IMG/VR virus record: IMGVR_UViG_2568526312_000010
Direction: 5' to 3' (one strand)
DNA: 64,000 nucleotides
Source: a virus
Taxonomy: Duplodnaviria; Heunggongvirae; Uroviricota; Caudoviricetes
The stretch's first letter is position 1, and the number at the start of each line of letters is the position of its first letter. Below are positions 1,306 through 63,637 of this stretch, one piece after another. The position numbers and the translations under genes were made by a program. A model generated the notes under the pieces. That model saw only the letters and a list, made by a program, of their open reading frames with translations. It had not been told where the DNA came from and searched no databases.

Positions 1306-4986
<3,681 letters not shown>

Positions 4987-10046: not shown

Positions 10047-11897
10047 TTATGCTGCCGGTGCATTTATCTCCAGCACCAGACTTTCTATCTCAACGCCATA
10101 CGCTGCATTTTTTGTAACATCCGTCAGCGTCAGCGCATTCAGTCCCAGTGTCAGACTGTCTTTTATAACCTGGAATGCCGGGCCAGCCACTCCATTCAGT
10201 TTCGGAGTAACCGTGGCACTGCCGGCGGTGAACACCAGCTCCAGCGTCTGCCAGTCGTTACCGTAATCGCCGAACTCCCCCAGCTTCGTGTTTCCGGCTT
10301 TCCTGTGATGCATCAGATTCACTCTGCCGTCAGTGGTCTGAGTAAAGTACGACATCAGGAACGGATTACCGGTACCCGTCATCGCCACACCATCAGGAAC
10401 GGGAGCATCCGTATACAGATAAATCCCCAGCCCGAACTGATTGTTGGTCAGCGCGCCTGACAGGCGGAACTTACAGGTCAGTCTGCCGCCCTGTGTCAGC
10501 AGGGTAATTGCGTCATCCACCGGATGCGTCAGGGACCAGGTTTTATTGCTCTGCCTGGTGATCTTAAATACACCATCTGACAACTGAATTCCGCCATCCT
10601 TAATGCTCCAGCCCTGCGCAGCAGCCTCTCCGGCTGCCGGCAGCAGGGAGATTGTGCGAACGGACGTATCTGCAGACGGACCCGATGGCGTGTTGCCGCC
10701 GGGCGAGGGTTTGATTTCCGGTGCCTTACCACTGATGAAGGCTGAGGTGCGCCCGGCTGCGTTCAGAATAGCGGTTGCCAGACGCTCCGGAATAATGCTC
10801 CTGCGCGCCCATGAACTGAAATGTGTCGGGCGGTTTGATGATACCTGGTTTCCATTCGTTCTCGATGCCGCACCGTAATATCCTGATGCCGGAATATCCG
10901 GATCTTCTGCCGGCGCGTTAGTGGCGGTATTGACGCCGTTACCGTCTGTCATGAAGGGCACAAAATAAACGCCCTCACTCTCCCTGTTTTTATACCCGCC
11001 GTACACGGTGTCGTACTGGGTAGCGTATGTATTTTTCCAGTAATACGTCGTGTCACCACAAATCCACGGCACATCTGCAGCACTGCCACCATGGCACTGC
11101 GCGTTAAACACGGAGAGGTCAGCACGAAACTGTGCCAGCATGGCTGTAAACAGCGCAGGTTGCTGTGCGTGGGTGGCGGCGCTCATGTCAAACTCTCCCT
11201 GCATCCAGCAGACGGCCAGCAGAACGTTTTTGGGATTTTTCTGCAATGCCGCTTTTGTGCGGGAAATCAGATCCTGATATAACGGCTTGCCCACCCCCCA
11301 GCGTGCCGAATCCTGGCTGGCCCCCGTGGACTCGCTGAATGTCCCCTCCGCGCCCTGGGTAAATGCCGAACCACCACGACAGCATGGTACCAGCAGGATC
11401 CCCGCGTTATTCGGGATATACGGGAGCAGTTTTTTGGCAATATGTAACCCCTGGCCGACACAGCCGTACTGCCCTTTGCTCAGGTCTGCCTTCGGATGAT
11501 TCAGCGTACTCATATCCTGCACATCATGCAGGCAGTGGTCGGCCGGAATAATATCGTTATATCTGCAGGCAGCCCCACCCGGCGTCACTGTACTGCGGCG
11601 CGCCAGCTGTTTAATGCGCGGATCCGGAGCATCGTATGAATCCGGCAGCGGAAGCCCTTCACCGTAAGCCATGGCATTGGACTGCCCGGCCAGTACGATG
11701 ACGTAGTACCAATCCGGCTCAGTTGCACCACTGACCACCACATCACCTTCTGCTGTAATCGCCTGCATCAGGGTATAAGGGGTTATGGCCACCGGACTAC
11801 CAAACGGCTGCCAGCCCTCTTTCAGTTTGTGTGTCAGCTTTTCCGCAAGGTCTGACGGCGACGCCGCCCTGACAACATCATAATGTTTAATCGACAT
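10047..11897 (-). CDS. nanS: prophage sialate O-acetylesterase NanS-p (DUF1737 N-terminal domain plus SGNH-type esterase)
   Basis: 616 aa; GQSNAMAYG esterase motif; position upstream of the holin as in Stx-type phages. Confidence 0.8.
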   Translation of the reverse strand: MSIKHYDVVRAASPSDLAEKLTHKLKEGWQPFGSPVAITPYTLMQAITAEGDVVVSGATEPDWYYVIVLAGQSNAMAYGEGLPLPDSYDAPDPRIKQLARRSTVTPGGAACRYNDIIPADHCLHDVQDMSTLNHPKADLSKGQYGCVGQGLHIAKKLLPYIPNNAGILLVPCCRGGSAFTQGAEGTFSESTGASQDSARWGVGKPLYQDLISRTKAALQKNPKNVLLAVCWMQGEFDMSAATHAQQPALFTAMLAQFRADLSVFNAQCHGGSAADVPWICGDTTYYWKNTYATQYDTVYGGYKNRESEGVYFVPFMTDGNGVNTATNAPAEDPDIPASGYYGAASRTNGNQVSSNRPTHFSSWARRSIIPERLATAILNAAGRTSAFISGKAPEIKPSPGGNTPSGPSADTSVRTISLLPAAGEAAAQGWSIKDGGIQLSDGVFKITRQSNKTWSLTHPVDDAITLLTQGGRLTCKFRLSGALTNNQFGLGIYLYTDAPVPDGVAMTGTGNPFLMSYFTQTTDGRVNLMHHRKAGNTKLGEFGDYGNDWQTLELVFTAGSATVTPKLNGVAGPAFQVIKDSLTLGLNALTLTDVTKNAAYGVEIESLVLEINAPAA

Positions 11898-12374
11898 CGA
11901 ATTTCTCCCGTGTACAGGAACAGAGTTAAAAAGCCGGAACCGGAATCAAATCACAGGATGACCATCTGCCAGTGGCTGGTCGTAAAAAAAAGCCGCGCCA
12001 TGCGCAGCCGGAAATAAAGGGATAACGATGATAGTTTGAGAAAAACAGAAACAACACTTTTGTGGCAAAGCATGGTGCCGGGTGCCTCCCGGTGAATTCA
12101 GTATCAGCACCTGAATCCGCGATTATCCCATATACCTGGTTGCTGATCGCCCCTCCGCACAGGGGGATTCACCATGCAGAAGTGTTTTTAATAAACAGCA
12201 AACAAAAAAATCAAGCATTATGCAGGCTGTTTCTTTTTATCACCGGCCACAGCAATACCACAATGCCGCAGACCAGCACCCCATCCGCCAGCACCGACAT
12301 GATTCTGCTGGTGAAATCCACCATCACCACCAGAAACAGCAGGAGTGCAGCCACAGCCAGGCGCAGTTTTACCG

Positions 12375-12806
12375 TCACAGGTGATTCTCCAGACGAAGAC
12401 CCAGAACACCGGCAATCTCTTCCAGCACCTTGCGCTCTTCCGGCTCAATTTCGCCGTCTGCCTCCGCAATGGCCACCGCCACATCCAGCACATCTTCCGC
12501 TTCACGCGTATCGTGTTTCACATCCTCAATCTCACGTAACGCCGCACGACGACCAGTTTTAAAGTTCGTATCCAGCTGACCGATAATGGTTGCGCTAATC
12601 GCATTAATTTCTGACGTAAACGCGGACAGCGCAGGCTGATTACGCAGTACCTGTTCGATCTTCGCTTTCTCGGATGCCTCACATTCACCATCTGCACAGG
12701 CCACCAGGTATGCGGCGTTAATCACCACCTGTGCCAGATCGCGTTTTTCAAACTTTTTAATTTCCGTTGCCGCTCTGCGGGTTTTCTTTTTGAAGATTCC
12801 AAACAT
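12375..12806 (-). CDS. TerB-like (tellurite-resistance-like) protein
   Basis: ACADGECEASEKAKIEQVL...AIAEADGEIEPEERKVLEEIAGVLG pattern; start taken at ATG 12806 with AAGGA RBS. Confidence 0.65.
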   Translation of the reverse strand: MFGIFKKKTRRAATEIKKFEKRDLAQVVINAAYLVACADGECEASEKAKIEQVLRNQPALSAFTSEINAISATIIGQLDTNFKTGRRAALREIEDVKHDTREAEDVLDVAVAIAEADGEIEPEERKVLEEIAGVLGLRLENHL

Positions 12807-12936
12807 CGTGACGTTCCTTTGGGTGGGTGAGCCAACGCCCGGGAGCGATCTGCCCACAGAGAAAGTCACACTGACCACTCCGTAAGCTCACCCCCGAAAG
12901 GCTCTGTGGTTGGTATGCGCCGGGCGTGGCGCAGAT

Positions 12937-12962
12937 ACAAAAAAGGCCCGCCGAAGCGAGCC
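12937..12962 (-). terminator. rho-independent terminator downstream of tRNA cluster
   Basis: minus strand GGCTCGC-TTCG-GCGGGCC hairpin followed by T6. Confidence 0.55.
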
Positions 12963-12975
12963 TGGAAAATAAGTG

Positions 12976-13052
12976 TGGCGCGTTGTAGTGGAGTCGAACC
13001 ACTGACCGATTGCTTAGAAGGCAATTGCTCTGTCCGGCTGAGCTAACAACGC
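12976..13052 (-). tRNA. tRNA-Arg (anticodon TCT)
   Basis: hand-folded cloverleaf with perfect 7-bp acceptor stem, CTTCTAA anticodon loop, TTCGACT T-loop, CCA end. Confidence 0.8.
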
Positions 13053-13065
13053 AGAATACCGATAA

Positions 13066-13145
13066 TGGACCGCCATCGGGGACCCGGCCCCGCACCAACA
13101 ACCCTGTTATGGTGTCGTCTGCTCTTCCTGATAAGCTAATGGCGG
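13066..13145 (-). pseudogene. degenerate tRNA-like remnant (position of tRNA-Arg(TCG) in prophage 2)
   Basis: acceptor-stem halves conserved but interior replaced; no canonical T-loop or anticodon stem. Confidence 0.4.
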
Positions 13146-13152
13146 TTTGTGA

Positions 13153-13228
13153 TGGTGGCCCTTGCTGGATTTGAACCAGCGACCTGGCGATTATGAGTCG
13201 CTCGCTCTCACCACTGAGCTAAAGGGCC
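13153..13228 (-). tRNA. tRNA-Ile2-like (anticodon CAT)
   Basis: GGCCCTTTAGCTCAGTGGTGAGAGCG...CTCATAATCGC...GGTTCAAATCC...GGGCCACCA, resembles recalled ileX-type tRNA. Confidence 0.8.
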
Positions 13229-13256: not shown

Positions 13257-13970
13257 TCAATAATCAAGCCCTTGCCTGGATACATATCTGTCTGGCGGGA
13301 AGCCATAATAGCGGTGAAATACAGAAATAAAGTAGGACCGGCTTGAATAACCACATTTTTCTGCTACAGCCTGTCCATATCCATACCGGGAACATAACAT
13401 ATTTACAGCAACACGCATCCGCTCTTCCAGCAACAAGCGACTGAACATGCCCCCTTCATTTTTCAGTTTTGTCTTTAACAAACTCTCACTCATATGCAAC
13501 TGTAGAGCAATCGCACCAAGCGTCCAGCTTGCTGATATATCTGTCTGAATTATCGCCCTGACTTTGGCACTTATGCTGGATAAACATCCACTTAAAAACA
13601 ATGACATCCGTTCATCTGTTTCAAACAGAGACAGGCAGGCCATCATAAGAAACATATCCGTGACCTCTCCGGAAAATCCCTGGCTGGTAATTAAAGCCGC
13701 AGCCAACGCAGGATTGTTGGGTTCCAGCAACAGGTAAAGCGGAATGTCAGTCAGACGAGTCCTCGTCAGCTTATGCTGACTTTCCAGATATTGACTTACG
13801 ACGGATTCGCTTATATCGACAATTTTAACTTTGCCATAATGCATAAGGAAAAGCTCCCTGATGCATTTGGTGGCCAGAACGACTGAGCCTGGCTTAAGTG
13901 ACAACGTATCCTTTTCAAGAAAAATATTAATTGGGGAGCAAACCATGATAACTGAACAGACAACAGCCAT
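13257..13970 (-). CDS. AraC-family transcriptional regulator (AppY/PerA-like architecture)
   Basis: 237 aa; C-terminal AraC-type HTH (AVAEKCGYSSRSYFISVFHRYYGFPP); AT-rich gene; present only in prophage 1. Confidence 0.75.
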   Translation of the reverse strand: MAVVCSVIMVCSPINIFLEKDTLSLKPGSVVLATKCIRELFLMHYGKVKIVDISESVVSQYLESQHKLTRTRLTDIPLYLLLEPNNPALAAALITSQGFSGEVTDMFLMMACLSLFETDERMSLFLSGCLSSISAKVRAIIQTDISASWTLGAIALQLHMSESLLKTKLKNEGGMFSRLLLEERMRVAVNMLCSRYGYGQAVAEKCGYSSRSYFISVFHRYYGFPPDRYVSRQGLDY

Positions 13971-15144: not shown

Positions 15145-15450
15145 CTAGCCGCGCACAATATTGATTTCATCAAACTGCTCGTCGTCTATGAGAAGTCCGG
15201 CATGCGTCAGCGCATCCAGTGGTGCTTTCAGGATATTGTCCAGGTCACGACGGCGCTTATCCGGTGGCTCTGCAATAATCTTTATCGCCAGCCTTCCGGA
15301 CAGGTTTAATTTCAGCCGCTGCTGGCGAACAATAAGTGCCACATCCCGGCGATAACGCTCACCGGCTTTTGATACAAAATATGTGCTGCCACGACGTCGC
15401 CAGTAGGTGTTCACCGTCGGCGGGTAAGGCAAAACAAACTCTATACGCAT
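15145..15450 (-). CDS. rusA: Holliday-junction resolvase RusA, truncated by a nonsense codon relative to prophage 2 copy
   Basis: PPDKRRRDLDNILKAPLDALTHAGLLIDDEQ matches RusA; ends INIVRG-stop where copy 2 continues QLVPGERLGIKITELECA. Confidence 0.8.
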   Translation of the reverse strand: MRIEFVLPYPPTVNTYWRRRGSTYFVSKAGERYRRDVALIVRQQRLKLNLSGRLAIKIIAEPPDKRRRDLDNILKAPLDALTHAGLLIDDEQFDEINIVRG

Positions 15451-17371: not shown

Positions 17372-17527
17372 TTACTTCTCAGATTCGTAGTCTACGAAGA
17401 CAGCGACCTCCGTCTGACCGGTTCGGATTCGCACCTCGCAGAGGTCTTTCCTCGTTACCAGTGCCGTCACTATGACGGTTAAACAGATGACGATCAGGGC
17501 GATTAACATCGCCTTTTGCTGCTTCAT
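17372..17527 (-). CDS. hok: Hok/Gef-family membrane toxin (HokD/RelF-like)
   Basis: MKQQKAMLIALIVICLTVIVTALVTRKDLCEVRIRTGQTEVAVF matches recalled Hok family; RBS AAGGAG upstream. Confidence 0.8.
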   Translation of the reverse strand: MKQQKAMLIALIVICLTVIVTALVTRKDLCEVRIRTGQTEVAVFVDYESEK

Positions 17528-17817
17528 AGCCTGCTTCTCCTTGCCTTTCGGCACGTAAGAGGCTAACCTACATGTGTTCAGCATGGATTGAGCCTCAGAT
17601 TAATGTTAAGCGTCTTGCAGGACGCGTAATGTTAACTGGGGCTTTTCTCTATCTGCCGTTGGTGTTCATGCCCGAGGCAGATAGCCTCAAGCACCCGCAG
17701 CAATTCTACTTAACTATCCTTTTCCCGCAAACCGTTTTTATCCCCAGCGGCAAATCGAATACACCACCAGCGCCACCGCCATCGCAATTCCTACCGTTGT
17801 GAATGCTTCAGGCCAGG

Positions 17818-24904: not shown

Positions 24905-24962
24905 TTTCTGGTGACGTTTGGCGGTATCAGTTTTACTCCGTGGCTGCTCTGCCGCCCTTTTT
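24905..24962 (+). ncRNA. dicF: DicF small RNA
   Basis: tttctggtgacgtttggcggtatcagttttactccgtggctgctctgccgcccttttt matches recalled DicF with one mismatch; terminator hairpin plus U-tract; upstream of dicB. Confidence 0.8.
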
Positions 24963-59198: not shown

Positions 59199-61049
59199 TT
59201 ATGCTGCCGGTGCATTTATCTCCAGCACCAGACTTTCTATCTCAACGCCATACGCTGCATTTTTTGTAACATCCGTCAGCGTCAGCGCATTCAGTCCCAG
59301 TGTCAGACTGTCTTTTATAACCTGGAATGCCGGGCCAGCCACTCCATTCAGTTTCGGAGTAACCGTGGCACTGCCGGCGGTGAACACCAGCTCCAGCGTC
59401 TGCCAGTCGTTACCGTAATCGCCGAACTCCCCCAGCTTCGTGTTTCCGGCTTTCCTGTGATGCATCAGATTCACTCTGCCGTCAGTGGTCTGAGTAAAGT
59501 ACGACATCAGGAACGGATTACCGGTACCCGTCATCGCCACACCATCAGGAACGGGAGCATCCGTATACAGATAAATCCCCAGCCCGAACTGATTGTTGGT
59601 CAGCGCGCCTGACAGGCGGAACTTACAGGTCAGTCTGCCGCCCTGTGTCAGCAGGGTAATTGCGTCATCCACCGGATGCGTCAGGGACCAGGTTTTATTG
59701 CTCTGCCTGGTGATCTTAAATACACCATCTGACAACTGAATTCCGCCATCCTTAATGCTCCAGCCCTGCGCAGCAGCCTCTCCGGCTGCCGGCAGCAGGG
59801 AGATTGTGCGAACGGACGTATCTGCAGACGGACCCGATGGCGTGTTGCCGCCGGGCGAGGGTTTGATTTCCGGTGCCTTACCACTGATGAAGGCTGAGGT
59901 GCGCCCGGCTGCGTTCAGAATAGCGGTTGCCAGACGCTCCGGAATAATGCTCCTGCGCGCCCATGAACTGAAATGTGTCGGGCGGTTTGATGATACCTGG
60001 TTTCCATTCGTTCTCGATGCCGCACCGTAATATCCTGATGCCGGAATATCCGGATCTTCTGCCGGCGCGTTAGTGGCGGTATTGACGCCGTTACCGTCTG
60101 TCATGAAGGGCACAAAATAAACGCCCTCACTCTCCCTGTTTTTATACCCGCCGTACACGGTGTCGTACTGGGTAGCGTATGTATTTTTCCAGTAATACGT
60201 CGTGTCACCACAAATCCACGGCACATCTGCAGCACTGCCACCATGGCACTGCGCGTTAAACACGGAGAGGTCAGCACGAAACTGTGCCAGCATGGCTGTA
60301 AACAGCGCAGGTTGCTGTGCGTGGGTGGCGGCGCTCATGTCAAACTCTCCCTGCATCCAGCAGACGGCCAGCAGAACGTTTTTGGGATTTTTCTGCAATG
60401 CCGCTTTTGTGCGGGAAATCAGATCCTGATATAACGGCTTGCCCACCCCCCAGCGTGCCGAATCCTGGCTGGCCCCCGTGGACTCGCTGAATGTCCCCTC
60501 CGCGCCCTGGGTAAATGCCGAACCACCACGACAGCATGGTACCAGCAGGATCCCCGCGTTATTCGGGATATACGGGAGCAGTTTTTTGGCAATATGTAAC
60601 CCCTGGCCGACACAGCCGTACTGCCCTTTGCTCAGGTCTGCCTTCGGATGATTCAGCGTACTCATATCCTGCACATCATGCAGGCAGTGGTCGGCCGGAA
60701 TAATATCGTTATATCTGCAGGCAGCCCCACCCGGCGTCACTGTACTGCGGCGCGCCAGCTGTTTAATGCGCGGATCCGGAGCATCGTATGAATCCGGCAG
60801 CGGAAGCCCTTCACCGTAAGCCATGGCATTGGACTGCCCGGCCAGTACGATGACGTAGTACCAATCCGGCTCAGTTGCACCACTGACCACCACATCACCT
60901 TCTGCTGTAATCGCCTGCATCAGGGTATAAGGGGTTATGGCCACCGGACTACCAAACGGCTGCCAGCCCTCTTTCAGTTTGTGTGTCAGCTTTTCCGCAA
61001 GGTCTGACGGCGACGCCGCCCTGACAACATCATAATGTTTAATCGACAT
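59199..61049 (-). CDS. nanS: NanS-p sialate O-acetylesterase (identical copy)
   Basis: 616 aa identical to 10047..11897. Confidence 0.8.
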   Translation of the reverse strand: MSIKHYDVVRAASPSDLAEKLTHKLKEGWQPFGSPVAITPYTLMQAITAEGDVVVSGATEPDWYYVIVLAGQSNAMAYGEGLPLPDSYDAPDPRIKQLARRSTVTPGGAACRYNDIIPADHCLHDVQDMSTLNHPKADLSKGQYGCVGQGLHIAKKLLPYIPNNAGILLVPCCRGGSAFTQGAEGTFSESTGASQDSARWGVGKPLYQDLISRTKAALQKNPKNVLLAVCWMQGEFDMSAATHAQQPALFTAMLAQFRADLSVFNAQCHGGSAADVPWICGDTTYYWKNTYATQYDTVYGGYKNRESEGVYFVPFMTDGNGVNTATNAPAEDPDIPASGYYGAASRTNGNQVSSNRPTHFSSWARRSIIPERLATAILNAAGRTSAFISGKAPEIKPSPGGNTPSGPSADTSVRTISLLPAAGEAAAQGWSIKDGGIQLSDGVFKITRQSNKTWSLTHPVDDAITLLTQGGRLTCKFRLSGALTNNQFGLGIYLYTDAPVPDGVAMTGTGNPFLMSYFTQTTDGRVNLMHHRKAGNTKLGEFGDYGNDWQTLELVFTAGSATVTPKLNGVAGPAFQVIKDSLTLGLNALTLTDVTKNAAYGVEIESLVLEINAPAA

Positions 61050-61527
61050 CGAATTTCTCCCGTGTACAGGAACAGAGTTAAAAAGCCGGAACCGGAATCA
61101 AATCACAGGATGACCATCTGCCAGTGGCTGGTCGTAAAAAAAAGGCCGCGCCATGCGCAGCCGGAAATAAAGGGATAACGATGATAGTTTGAGAAAAACA
61201 GAAATAACACTTTTGTGGCAAAGCATGGTGCCGGGTGCCTCCCGGTGAATTCAGTACCAGCACCTGAATCCGCGATTATCCCATATACCTTCTTGCTGAT
61301 CGCCCCTCCGCACAGGGGGATTCACCATGCAGAAGTGTTTTTAATAAACAGCAAACAAAAAAATCAAGCATTATGCAGGCTGTTTCTTTTTATCACCGGC
61401 CACAGCAATACCACAATGCCGCAGACCAGCACCCCATCCGCCAGCACCGACATGATTCTGCTGGTGAAATCCACCATCACCACCAGAAACAGCAGGAGTG
61501 CAGCCACAGTCAGGCGCAGTTTTACCG

Positions 61528-61989
61528 TCACAGGTGATTCTCCAGACGAAGACCCAGAACACCGGCAATCTCTTCCAGCACCTTGCGCTCTTCCGGCTCA
61601 ATTTCGCCGTCTGCCTCCGCAATGGCCACCGCCACATCCAGCACATCTTCCGCTTCACGCGTATCGTGTTTCACATCCTCGATCTCACGTAACGCCGCAC
61701 GACGACCAGTTTTAAAGTTCGTATCCAGCTGACCGATAATGGTTGCGCTAATCGCATTAATTTCTGACGTAAACGCGGACAGCGCAGGCTGATTACGCAG
61801 TACCTGTTCGATCTTCGCTTTCTCGGATGCCTCACATTCACCATCTGCACAGGCCACCAGGTATGCGGCGTTAATCACCACCTGTGCCAGATCGCGTTTT
61901 TCAAACTTTTTAATTTCCGTTGCCGCTCTGCGGGCTTTTTTTACCAAAAATACCAAACATCGTGACGTTCCTTTGGGTGGGTGAGCCAA
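61528..61989 (-). CDS. TerB-like protein, 5' end frameshifted relative to prophage 1 copy (possible pseudogene or alternative start)
   Basis: conserved ATG at 61960 reads MFGIFGKKSPQSGNGN-stop because of a 1-nt insertion in an A-run; longest ORF uses an upstream ATG. Confidence 0.5.
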   Translation of the reverse strand: MAHPPKGTSRCLVFLVKKARRAATEIKKFEKRDLAQVVINAAYLVACADGECEASEKAKIEQVLRNQPALSAFTSEINAISATIIGQLDTNFKTGRRAALREIEDVKHDTREAEDVLDVAVAIAEADGEIEPEERKVLEEIAGVLGLRLENHL

Positions 61990-62131
61990 CGCCCGGGAGC
62001 GATCTGCCCACAGAGAAAGTCACACTGACCACTCCGTAAGCTCCCCCCCCCGAAAGGCTCTGTGGTTGGTATGTGCCGGGCGTGGCGCAGATACAAAAAA
62101 GGCCCGCAAAAGCGAGCCGGGAAAATAAGTG

Positions 62132-62208
62132 TGGCGCGTTGTACTGGAGTCGAACCAGTGACCGATTGCTTAGAAGGCAATTGCTCTGTCCTGCTGAGCT
62201 AAAAACGC
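62132..62208 (-). tRNA. tRNA-Arg (anticodon TCT), variant allele
   Basis: same cloverleaf as copy 1 with compensatory T-stem change and one acceptor-stem T-C mismatch. Confidence 0.7.
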
Positions 62209-62221
62209 AGAATACCGATAA

Positions 62222-62298
62222 TGGACCGCCATCGGAGACTCGAACCCCGCGAAACCAGCTTCGAAGGCTGGCGTTCTATCCCGATGAGCTAATGGCGG
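62222..62298 (-). tRNA. tRNA-Arg (anticodon TCG)
   Basis: acceptor CCGCCAT/ATGGCGG, anticodon loop CTTCGAA, T-loop TTCGAGT, CCA end. Confidence 0.7.
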
Positions 62299-62305
62299 TA
62301 TGTGA

Positions 62306-62381
62306 TGGTGGCCCTTGCTGGATTTGAACCAGCGGCCTGGCGATTATGAGTCGCTCGCTCTCACCACTGAGCTAAAGGGCC
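62306..62381 (-). tRNA. tRNA-Ile2-like (anticodon CAT)
   Basis: near-identical to the copy at 13153..13228. Confidence 0.8.
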
Positions 62382-62591: not shown

Positions 62592-63287
62592 TCAATCTAC
62601 TTTTGCAACACTTTGCTTTGAAAATGCCGCCTTTTGTTTTGAACGCGTTCTCATTACAAACAATAAAGCCTCACTATCCAGTCGGTGAAAAATGTGTTTC
62701 ATTGCAACCCAGTGACGAGTAAATGTTTTGGACCAGTTTTTAGTTGTCACTCCCACCAGTAATGCCAGCTCCTTGTATTCATAACCTTCCCCACCAAAAA
62801 GTTCTGCTTTTACTGCCTGCGCCGCCAGCCAGATTAATTTTTTCAGGCGTTCCTGCGTTTTCCCTGCAATTTTTCTGGTACCGGATTGAGTATTAAATTC
62901 ATTCCACGCCCACTGTGTTATCGCGATCTGATATTCCCAACAAATACTCCCGCTGTAACACCACAACAACCAGGCTTTATGATGTTCTTCAAGAGACAGA
63001 ACAGCCCGCCGCCACGATGATGTCGAAAACTCAACCGGACTGACCAGAGGAATTGACGTCACCTTCGCCAGCGATTGCTTTCCCGGGATTGGTGGATTAT
63101 CCCGCGTTATCATTTTTCCAGTCACTTCATCGCGGTACCGGATTTTTTTTCGCCTGTAACGCCCTGTATCGAACATGGCATTCTCCTGCCAGGCTTCAAG
63201 CTGACCTTTTGTTGCCCCACTCAAATCAGCGGTGGCGATAATGAGCTGCTCACGCACAAACTGTAAATAGTGGTTATTCATGCGCAC
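62592..63287 (-). CDS. late antiterminator Q-like protein (allele 2, unrelated in sequence to allele 1)
   Basis: 231 aa in the same slot as 14528..15094. Confidence 0.5.
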   Translation of the reverse strand: MRMNNHYLQFVREQLIIATADLSGATKGQLEAWQENAMFDTGRYRRKKIRYRDEVTGKMITRDNPPIPGKQSLAKVTSIPLVSPVEFSTSSWRRAVLSLEEHHKAWLLWCYSGSICWEYQIAITQWAWNEFNTQSGTRKIAGKTQERLKKLIWLAAQAVKAELFGGEGYEYKELALLVGVTTKNWSKTFTRHWVAMKHIFHRLDSEALLFVMRTRSKQKAAFSKQSVAKVD

Positions 63288-63637
63288 TCCAGTTCTGTGA
63301 TTTTTATCCCCAGCCGCTCACCAGGAACGAGCTGACCGCGCACAATATTGATTTCATCAAACTGCTCGTCGTCTATGAGAAGTCCGGCATGCGTCAGCAC
63401 ATCCAGTGGTGCTTTCAGGATATTGTCCAGGTCACGACGGCGCTTATCCGGTGGCTCTGCAATAATCTTTATCACCAGCCTTCCGGACAGGTTTAATTTC
63501 AGCCGCTGCTGGCGAACAATAAGTGCCACATCCCGGCGATAACGCTCACCGGCTTTTGATACAAAATATGTGCTGCCACGACGTCGCCAGTAGGTGTTCA
63601 CCGTCGGCGGGTAAGGCAAAACAAACTCTATACGCAT
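63278..63637 (-). CDS. rusA: Holliday-junction resolvase RusA (full length)
   Basis: 119 aa, RusA motifs, intact C-terminus. Confidence 0.85.
   Translation of the reverse strand: MRIEFVLPYPPTVNTYWRRRGSTYFVSKAGERYRRDVALIVRQQRLKLNLSGRLVIKIIAEPPDKRRRDLDNILKAPLDVLTHAGLLIDDEQFDEINIVRGQLVPGERLGIKITELECA

Follow-up and report, generated by a model that had tools for sequence, protein, structure and literature searches.

A TerB-like tciA cassette in the stx slot of two stx-less O157:H7 prophages, with a frameshifted second copy

The window analyzed here is a 64,000-nucleotide (nt) stretch of DNA from the virus record IMGVR_UViG_2568526312_000010. It holds sequence of two stx-less lambdoid prophages of Escherichia coli O157:H7, each carrying one copy of tciA, a gene for a TerB-like protein. 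In both prophages, tciA, tciB (DUF3927), and a small RNA (sRNA) of the STnc100 family make up a cassette of accessory genes. Its slot is the one held by stx in Stx phages, 3' of the antiterminator gene Q and the tRNA genes and 5' of nanS-p and the lysis genes. The copy in prophage 1 (copy 1) is intact. In prophage 2 (copy 2), lengthening of a run of six A residues to seven (A6 to A7) after codon 8 leaves the rest of the gene out of frame with the conserved ATG and its Shine-Dalgarno sequence. Judged from the sequence, copy 2 is probably a null or a hypomorph/pseudogene from which little or no TciA would be made.

Alignment of the two copies, a check proposed with the initial annotation of this region, revealed that a single synonymous change separates them between codon 10 and the stop codon, and that codons 3 to 9 differ in several bases (copy 1, GGAATCTTCAAAAAGAAAACC; copy 2, GGTATTTTTGGTAAAAAAAGCC, which is 1 nt longer and contains A7). 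The same 5' allele with A6 is in frame (MFGIFGKKARRAA...) in other genomes (O145:H28 RM13516, phage JLK-2012, and several other strains); hence, A7 represents a +1 insertion. Reading from the conserved ATG at 61960 gives MFGIFGKKSPQSGNGN and then a stop, so the single-base insertion and the 16-codon frame that the initial annotation had described were both borne out. The in-frame start candidates for copy 2 are TTG codons only, at 61989, 61956, and 61947. Of these, TTG 61956, located 4 nt 3' of the first base of the ATG, is used by both RefSeq/PGAP and the Sakai annotation, whose model of copy 2 (WP_001303509.1 and ECs_2265) has no pseudogene flag. The AAGGA core of the Shine-Dalgarno sequence is 8 nt away from the conserved ATG and 12 nt away from TTG 61956. 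In E. coli, a TTG initiates several-fold more weakly than an ATG does, and a spacing of 12 nt is at the outer limit of what still works. With the conserved ATG out of frame, the sole full-length start would thus be a TTG 12 nt from the AAGGA core, which would have to compete with the ATG 4 nt upstream and would give a product without the conserved MFG motif. The 20 nt 5' of TTG 61989 (GGGCAGATCGCTCCCGGGCG) contain no Shine-Dalgarno-like motif.

Genome counts were made as the best place per record, by identity band, together with 22 sampled loci. Copies of the gene occupy about 2,000 places in about 770 complete genomes. The exact A7 70-nt 5' end was found in 557 complete-genome records, including that of the reference strain Sakai; sources included O157:H7, O55:H7, O103, and O111, as well as isolates from dog, pig, and chicken. 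The isogenic A6 69-mer was exact in 8 records only, in a sampling dominated by genomes of clonal O157 and of other E. coli that make Shiga toxin (STEC). The A7 end was joined to an intact body of the O157 type in 287 records. All 17 of the O157-type loci read directly had A7, and a nearby poly-G tract varied among them. The A7 allele is common across E. coli lineages and occurs in more than one prophage context, a distribution that we take, from the sequences, as recombinational exchange between prophages.

The N terminus that copy 2 has lost from its frame is conserved in the family. In an alignment of 31 sequences, the motif MFGxFKKK was kept down to 50% identity, with G3 conserved at 90% or more and K7 invariant; the product from TTG 61956 loses G3. 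Outside O157, five of six sampled A7 copies also carried a GAG-to-TAG change at about codon 45 and were flagged by PGAP as pseudogenes. This stop haplotype differed from copy 2 by one synonymous and three nonsynonymous or nonsense changes. Among intact alleles with the ATG start, the ratio of nonsynonymous to synonymous polymorphism (pN/pS) was 0.01 to 0.08, with pS of up to 0.47. Comparing this ratio with the one synonymous and three nonsynonymous or nonsense changes indicates that the family is strongly constrained and that the lineage with A7 and the stop is not. The TTG gene model in RefSeq and Sakai, which presents copy 2 as intact, probably hides a hypomorph or pseudogene. The lesion would leave tciB and STnc100 in place in prophage 2, and the intact copy 1 would remain as well.

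Several observations weigh against loss of function. In RefSeq and Sakai, copy 2 is annotated as intact, with TTG 61956 as its start, and the N terminus in the +1 frame, MVFLVKKARR, is still hydrophobic and then basic. A7 is about 70 times commoner than isogenic A6 (557 versus 8 records), and a strongly deleterious allele might not reach such a frequency. In all 287 O157-type records, the body of copy 2 has no damage; this is explained equally well by low O157 diversity together with gene conversion from intact copies, and because the 5' end and the body recombine (CP051778 and L012, described below), an intact body is weak evidence. The stop haplotype was also found with A6 (locus L003), and either lesion could have been first. 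The functional model proposed below for TciA is, for its part, built wholly on homology to the TerB family.

These points bear most directly on the alternative in which copy 2 is functional from TTG 61956 and makes a 142-amino-acid (aa) TciA with an altered hydrophobic-basic N terminus, the frameshift being an N-terminal variant only. The frame is open from this TTG to the normal stop, it is annotated so in both WP_001303509.1 and ECs_2265, and the allele is present in the 557 records with its body intact in 287. Moreover, the TerB core begins near residues 15 to 30, and residues 5 to 19, modeled with low confidence, are probably outside the fold. However, the spacing of 12 nt from the AAGGA core, the better-placed ATG 4 nt upstream, and the loss of a nearly invariant G3 all speak against efficient use of this start or a normal product; the A7 copies outside O157 mostly bear a second, nonsense lesion; and gene conversion accounts for the intact body. 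We regard this alternative as doubtful, though deserving of real weight beside the probable loss of function. Initiation at an upstream in-frame ATG, which the initial annotation had offered as the alternative to inactivity, can be given almost no credence: the frame is open up to 61989, but this stretch contains neither ATG nor GTG, and TTG 61989 lacks a Shine-Dalgarno-like motif. The other half of that proposal, inactivity, is the outcome that we judge most likely.

A different way to rescue the conserved start would be recoding at A7, by tRNA-Lys slipping +1 on AAA AAA A or by RNA polymerase slippage to A6 transcripts, either of which might yield a low set level of MFGIFGKKARR.... A +1 shift within the run would regenerate the protein of the A6 allele exactly, and the ATG and Shine-Dalgarno sequence are fully conserved in A7 copies. 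Yet no stimulatory element is visible, no Shine-Dalgarno-like motif lies just 5' of the run, and what follows the run in the 0 frame is an ordinary AGC, neither a stop nor a rare codon. Seven A residues are short for efficient polymerase slippage, which disfavors the transcriptional version. In most alleles, and in every distant homolog that was aligned, the frame is simply intact, and A7 copies accumulate stop codons; recoding is accordingly improbable. The run was also considered, and rejected, as a programmed frameshift site (no stimulatory element, an out-of-frame layout that is not conserved, and stops in A7 copies) and as a phase-variable homopolymer switch (A7 in 17 of 17 O157-type loci, and 557 A7 versus 8 A6 records); only the upstream noncoding poly-G tract varied in length (G5 to G17). 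A related idea, to which we give a similarly slim chance, is that the 5' region of copy 2 is a tunable expression element in which low-level recoding of A7 is combined with tuning of the leader by the poly-G tract (G5 to G17); if true, tciA would be a dosage-set or contingency gene in multiprophage hosts. Lastly, homopolymers are the kind of site where sequencing or assembly errors arise, and the initial annotation had named such an error as what would undo its frameshift call. Here, it is excluded for practical purposes: the identical 70-mer is present in 557 complete-genome records from many laboratories, Sakai included, and A7 was read in 17 of 17 O157-type loci.

The poly-G tract (poly-C on the plus strand) lies at 62043 to 62051, about 85 nt 5' of the copy 2 ATG. 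It is G9 here and varies elsewhere: G10 to G12 in other O157:H7 genomes, G13 in Sakai, G17 in an O111:H8 strain, and G5 to G7 in others, a variation that may in part be assembly error. Copy 1 has an interrupted G5TG at the equivalent place. RNA folding of the leader and start region was not significant for either copy (z-scores of -1.0 and -1.2), and sequestering of the Shine-Dalgarno sequence by poly-G was dropped on the basis of these scores. In some copy-1-type alleles (proteins P0015 and P0103), the 5' end seems to be frameshifted in another way: the starts that gene callers assign are upstream or alternative ones (...KERHNAWNLQKKTRR and MNLQKKTRR), as would fit a -1 change in the AAAAAG run. 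The A-rich 5' end of tciA may be a recurrent indel hot spot.

Two genomes bear on exchange among tciA copies. In CP051778.1 (locus L024, O157:H7; gene at 4001 to 4429), an Sp11-type prophage, with the AraC-type regulator upstream, has a copy-1-type body fused to the A7 5' end; the fusion points to exchange between co-resident tciA copies. In a chicken isolate (L012), A7 was joined to a body with variants also found in an intact allele (L006). The A6/A7 difference, the codon 45 stop, and the poly-G length offer clean markers for exchange between co-resident prophages.

The start of copy 1 required correction. The 5' limit of 12878 given in the initial annotation is that of a mechanical open reading frame (ORF), whose GTG is merely the first start codon after a stop. 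The gene most likely starts at the conserved ATG 12806, which is preceded by AAGGA and then 8 nt; the product (MFGIFKKKTRRAATEIKKFEKRDL...) is 143 aa long and is the same as RefSeq/Sakai ECs_2190 (432 nt). Pfam TerB (PF05099) matched residues 31 to 138 of copy 1 (E = 3.7e-14; 53.4 bits versus a cut-off of 24.4) and matched copy 2 in the TTG frame with 52.4 bits. PHROG 632, "tellurite resistance," matched copy 1 over its full length (1 to 143 of 143; E = 1e-68), and the Klebsiella TerB structure 2JXU_A matched query residues 15 to 137 with chain residues 21 to 144 (E = 2.9e-7). An AlphaFold (AF2) model of TciA from 31 homologs (mean predicted confidence, pLDDT, of 81) had six helices and a low-confidence N-terminal segment at residues 5 to 19. 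The top Foldseek match in the PDB was weak (2h5n, a protein of unassigned function; TM score of 0.53 to 0.61, E = 7e-3), and 2JXU was not retrieved by fold; for this reason, fold evidence was left unused and family membership rests on sequence. Two acidic motifs, ADGECEASE (residues 38 to 46) and ADGEIEPEE (residues 116 to 124), form the paired ADG...E arrangement that we take to be a hallmark of TerB domains. Across the 31 homologs, D39, G40, and D117 were conserved at 90% or more, and E46, G118, and E124 were invariant.

Other family assignments were not upheld. DjlA gave a partial NCBIfam match (residues 87 to 138; E = 4.2e-7; 29.8 bits versus a cut-off of 162), and DUF533 (PF04391) scored 25.6 bits against a cut-off of 29.6 (E = 1e-5); TciA is a member of neither. 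No family-level NCBIfam match was obtained for TciA, the only ones being the partial DjlA match and another partial one, to YmfL, far below their cut-offs. The PADLOC defense models gave only a subthreshold partial match for TciA (PDC-S48; E = 0.005) and none for TciB, and therefore lend no support to a known defense system. None of terZ, terA, terC, terD, and terE was found near either copy, the neighbors being tRNA genes, DUF3927, STnc100, and nanS-p. A tellurite phenotype, suggested as a check with the initial annotation, would follow from the family name only, with no other ter genes adjacent. Homologs of TciA were found in 131 phage records, including P1, P7, D6, and jumbo phages of Erwinia and Salmonella, as well as phages of Vibrio, Pseudomonas, and Klebsiella. 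The tciA/tciB pair is already known, named, and annotated, and finding it here is ordinary.

In E. coli O157:H7, the window has its matches in prophages of two Sakai types, Sp11 (prophage 1) and Sp12 (prophage 2); a 561-nt stretch around copy 2 was 100% identical in 16 E. coli O157:H7 genomes. Copies 1 and 2 correspond to Sakai ECs_2190 (Sp11) and ECs_2265 (Sp12), both labeled "TciA/TerB-like protein" in that annotation. The tRNA-to-nanS-p interval of copy 1, 1,078 nt in length, holds only the TerB-like ORF, the DUF3927 ORF, and the STnc100 match, and thus no stx; stx genes were likewise absent from this interval in prophage 2, whose cassette repeats the layout of prophage 1 (tciA, tciB, STnc100, and flanking hairpins). 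The initial reading of this slot, with a TerB-like ORF in place and stx absent in both prophages, agrees with the Pfam and PHROG matches and with the contents of the interval. By tblastn, the window contains exactly two copies each of TciA and TciB. The Stx phages in the phage collection matched the cassette over its STnc100-like part only.

The GTG start of copy 1 tciB overlaps the tciA stop codon (GTGA) and has its own GGAG 8 nt upstream. TciB matched Pfam DUF3927 (E = 4.3e-17) and PHROG 1470, "TciB-like" (E = 4e-30). In both copies, STnc100 sits directly 3' of tciB and 5' of a terminator-like hairpin (Table 1). A consensus scan found no promoter-like site between the tRNA-side hairpin and the tciA start in either copy. 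A 2026 preprint counts TerB (PF05099) as one of the genes with a conserved place close to the PasA and PasC sRNAs, and it names STnc100 as a frequent neighbor.

Table 1. Features of the two tciA cassettes, with positions in the 64,000-nt window
Feature	Copy	Position	Strand	Remarks
tciA / TerB-like coding sequence	1	12375..12806	-	143 aa, ATG start, intact; Pfam, PHROG, P1, 2JXU, Sakai annotation
tciB / DUF3927 coding sequence	1	12211..12378	-	55 aa, two hydrophobic segments; Pfam, PHROG, P1
STnc100-family sRNA	1	12034..12206	-	Rfam RF02076, 104.7 bits (gathering score 47)
Terminator-like hairpin with T run, tRNA-Arg/tciA gap	1	12944..12963	-	Consensus scan
Terminator-like hairpin between STnc100 and nanS-p	1	11991..12009	-	Consensus scan
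tciA / TerB-like frame	2	61528..61956	-	RefSeq/PGAP and Sakai model from TTG 61956, 142 aa, MVFLVKKARR...
Ancestral-start remnant	2	61910..61960	-	Conserved ATG 61960, 16 codons (MFGIFGKKSPQSGNGN), then TAA
A7 run (T7 on plus strand)	2	61936..61942	-	+1 insertion relative to A6 alleles
tciB / DUF3927 coding sequence	2	61364..61531	-	Intact; one amino-acid difference from copy 1
STnc100-family sRNA	2	61187..61359	-	Rfam RF02076, 101.8 bits
Terminator-like hairpin, tRNA-Arg/tciA gap	2	62101..62118	-	
Terminator-like hairpin 3' of STnc100	2	61144..61162	-	

The regions flanking the cassettes differ in detail. The tRNA genes number two in prophage 1 (CAT and Arg-tct; 12976 to 13228) and three in prophage 2 (CAT, Arg-tcg, and Arg-tct; 62132 to 62381); the CAT tRNA is called Met by ARAGORN and tRNA-Ile (ileZ) in RefSeq and Sakai. 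Only prophage 1 has, between its Q region and its tRNA genes, a 237-aa ORF for an AraC-family regulator (13257 to 13970, minus strand; Pfam HTH_AraC and HTH_18); its Sakai counterpart is the shorter ECs_2191, a "phage regulatory protein." The RusA-family ORFs of the two prophages (101 aa at 15145 to 15450 in prophage 1; 119 aa at 63278 to 63637 in prophage 2; both on the minus strand) part right after ...EINIVRG, with different Q-type antiterminator genes next, probably at a mosaic junction. On the other side of the cassettes, the nanS-p-type esterase ORFs (10047 to 11897 and 59199 to 61049, both on the minus strand) encode 616-aa proteins with DUF1737, SASA, and DUF6645 domains; the two proteins appear identical, which fits homogenization of the whole late-region segment. 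Other Rfam matches in the window were the sok antitoxin RNA (17522 to 17696, minus strand), adjoining a hok/mok-type gene in the Sakai annotation, DicF (24906 to 24957, plus strand), and the ALIL pseudoknot (39799 to 39915, plus strand), a frameshift element of IS3-family insertion sequences; the latter suggests that an insertion sequence probably lies near 39.8 to 41.2 kb, in the tail region of the second prophage.

By homology, TciA is predicted to be soluble and helical, with a TerB domain, a pair of acidic ADG...E motifs, and a flexible hydrophobic-basic N terminus. It probably acts at the inner membrane with TciB, as TerB partners the membrane protein TerC; TciB, with its two hydrophobic segments, looks to be translationally linked to TciA, its start overlapping the tciA stop. 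Expression of tciA would come mainly from the Q-antiterminated late transcript in lytic growth, as for stx. Late, Q-dependent expression is expected because of the hairpin after the tRNA genes, the lack of a promoter-like site, and the position 3' of Q. The most likely role, in preference to tellurite resistance, is a membrane-associated accessory function in lytic growth that would buffer membrane stress, time lysis, or keep out other phages or colicins; a tellurite phenotype without the rest of the ter cluster is unlikely. In work cited in PMC11003894, TerB is reported as a partner of TerC, and the ter cluster is tied to phage inhibition and to colicin and tellurite resistance. Tellurite resistance was deemed unlikely in PMC8421299 for another phage terB that lacks the rest of the cluster. 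Among papers on DUF3927, prophage TerB/nanS-p, and tciA/tciB, no functional study was found beyond the nonessentiality screen in P1 described below, and none was found on ECs2190/ECs2265; "TerB" in PMC7430833 and PMC2241611 refers to replication terminus sites or the ter island and not to tciA.

The presence of the tciA family in P1-like, N4-like, jumbo, and lambdoid phages, together with strong purifying selection, suggests that it is useful to phages, and the stx slot of stx-less lambdoid prophages holds a conserved tciA-tciB-STnc100 cassette of putative function. The practical consequence concerns annotation: through an automated choice of the alternative TTG start, gene models give an allele with a frameshift the look of an intact gene in hundreds of RefSeq genomes, and counts of "intact" tciA/TerB in STEC prophages would mislead. 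The overall significance is modest, and nothing here would surprise a specialist.

These cassettes can be compared with four known systems. The likeness to the TerB-like N-terminal region of DjlA and to DUF533 is confined to weak, partial profile matches; unlike them, TciA has neither a J domain nor a fused transmembrane segment. The stxAB genes of Stx-converting phages are alike in position only: Q, the late promoter region, and the ileZ/argN/argO tRNA genes precede them, and an STnc100-like region, nanS-p, and the lysis genes follow, but their proteins are unrelated, and no toxin is encoded here. TerB of terZABCDEF (Klebsiella 2JXU; plasmid R478) shares with TciA a PF05099 match above the cut-off and two ADG...E motifs, and TciA is predicted to be all-helical as well. 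In contrast, tciA is a lone gene with a 55-aa membrane partner and no terZ/A/C/D/E nearby, and its similarity in sequence to the solved TerB is low (E = 2.9e-7). The tciA-tciB pair of P1 is alike in several respects. Full-length TciA shares 41% identity with its P1 counterpart (E = 4e-31), and for TciB the figure is 53%; the two genes come in the same order, with tciB starting at or within the tciA stop; and the P1 pair adjoins phage tRNA genes within a lytic-cycle operon, as here. In P1, tciA, tciB, and tciC were scored as nonessential by a CRISPR interference screen (PMC10695390). No homolog of P1 TciC was found, as the best tblastn match in the window had E = 1.1 and all three frames 3' of tciB contain stops. 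The two systems differ in setting and in their third member: tciABC of P1 lies among tRNA genes in the C1-repressed ban operon, whereas the cassettes described here occupy the Q-dependent late region of lambdoid prophages, and in them an STnc100 sRNA follows tciB instead of tciC.

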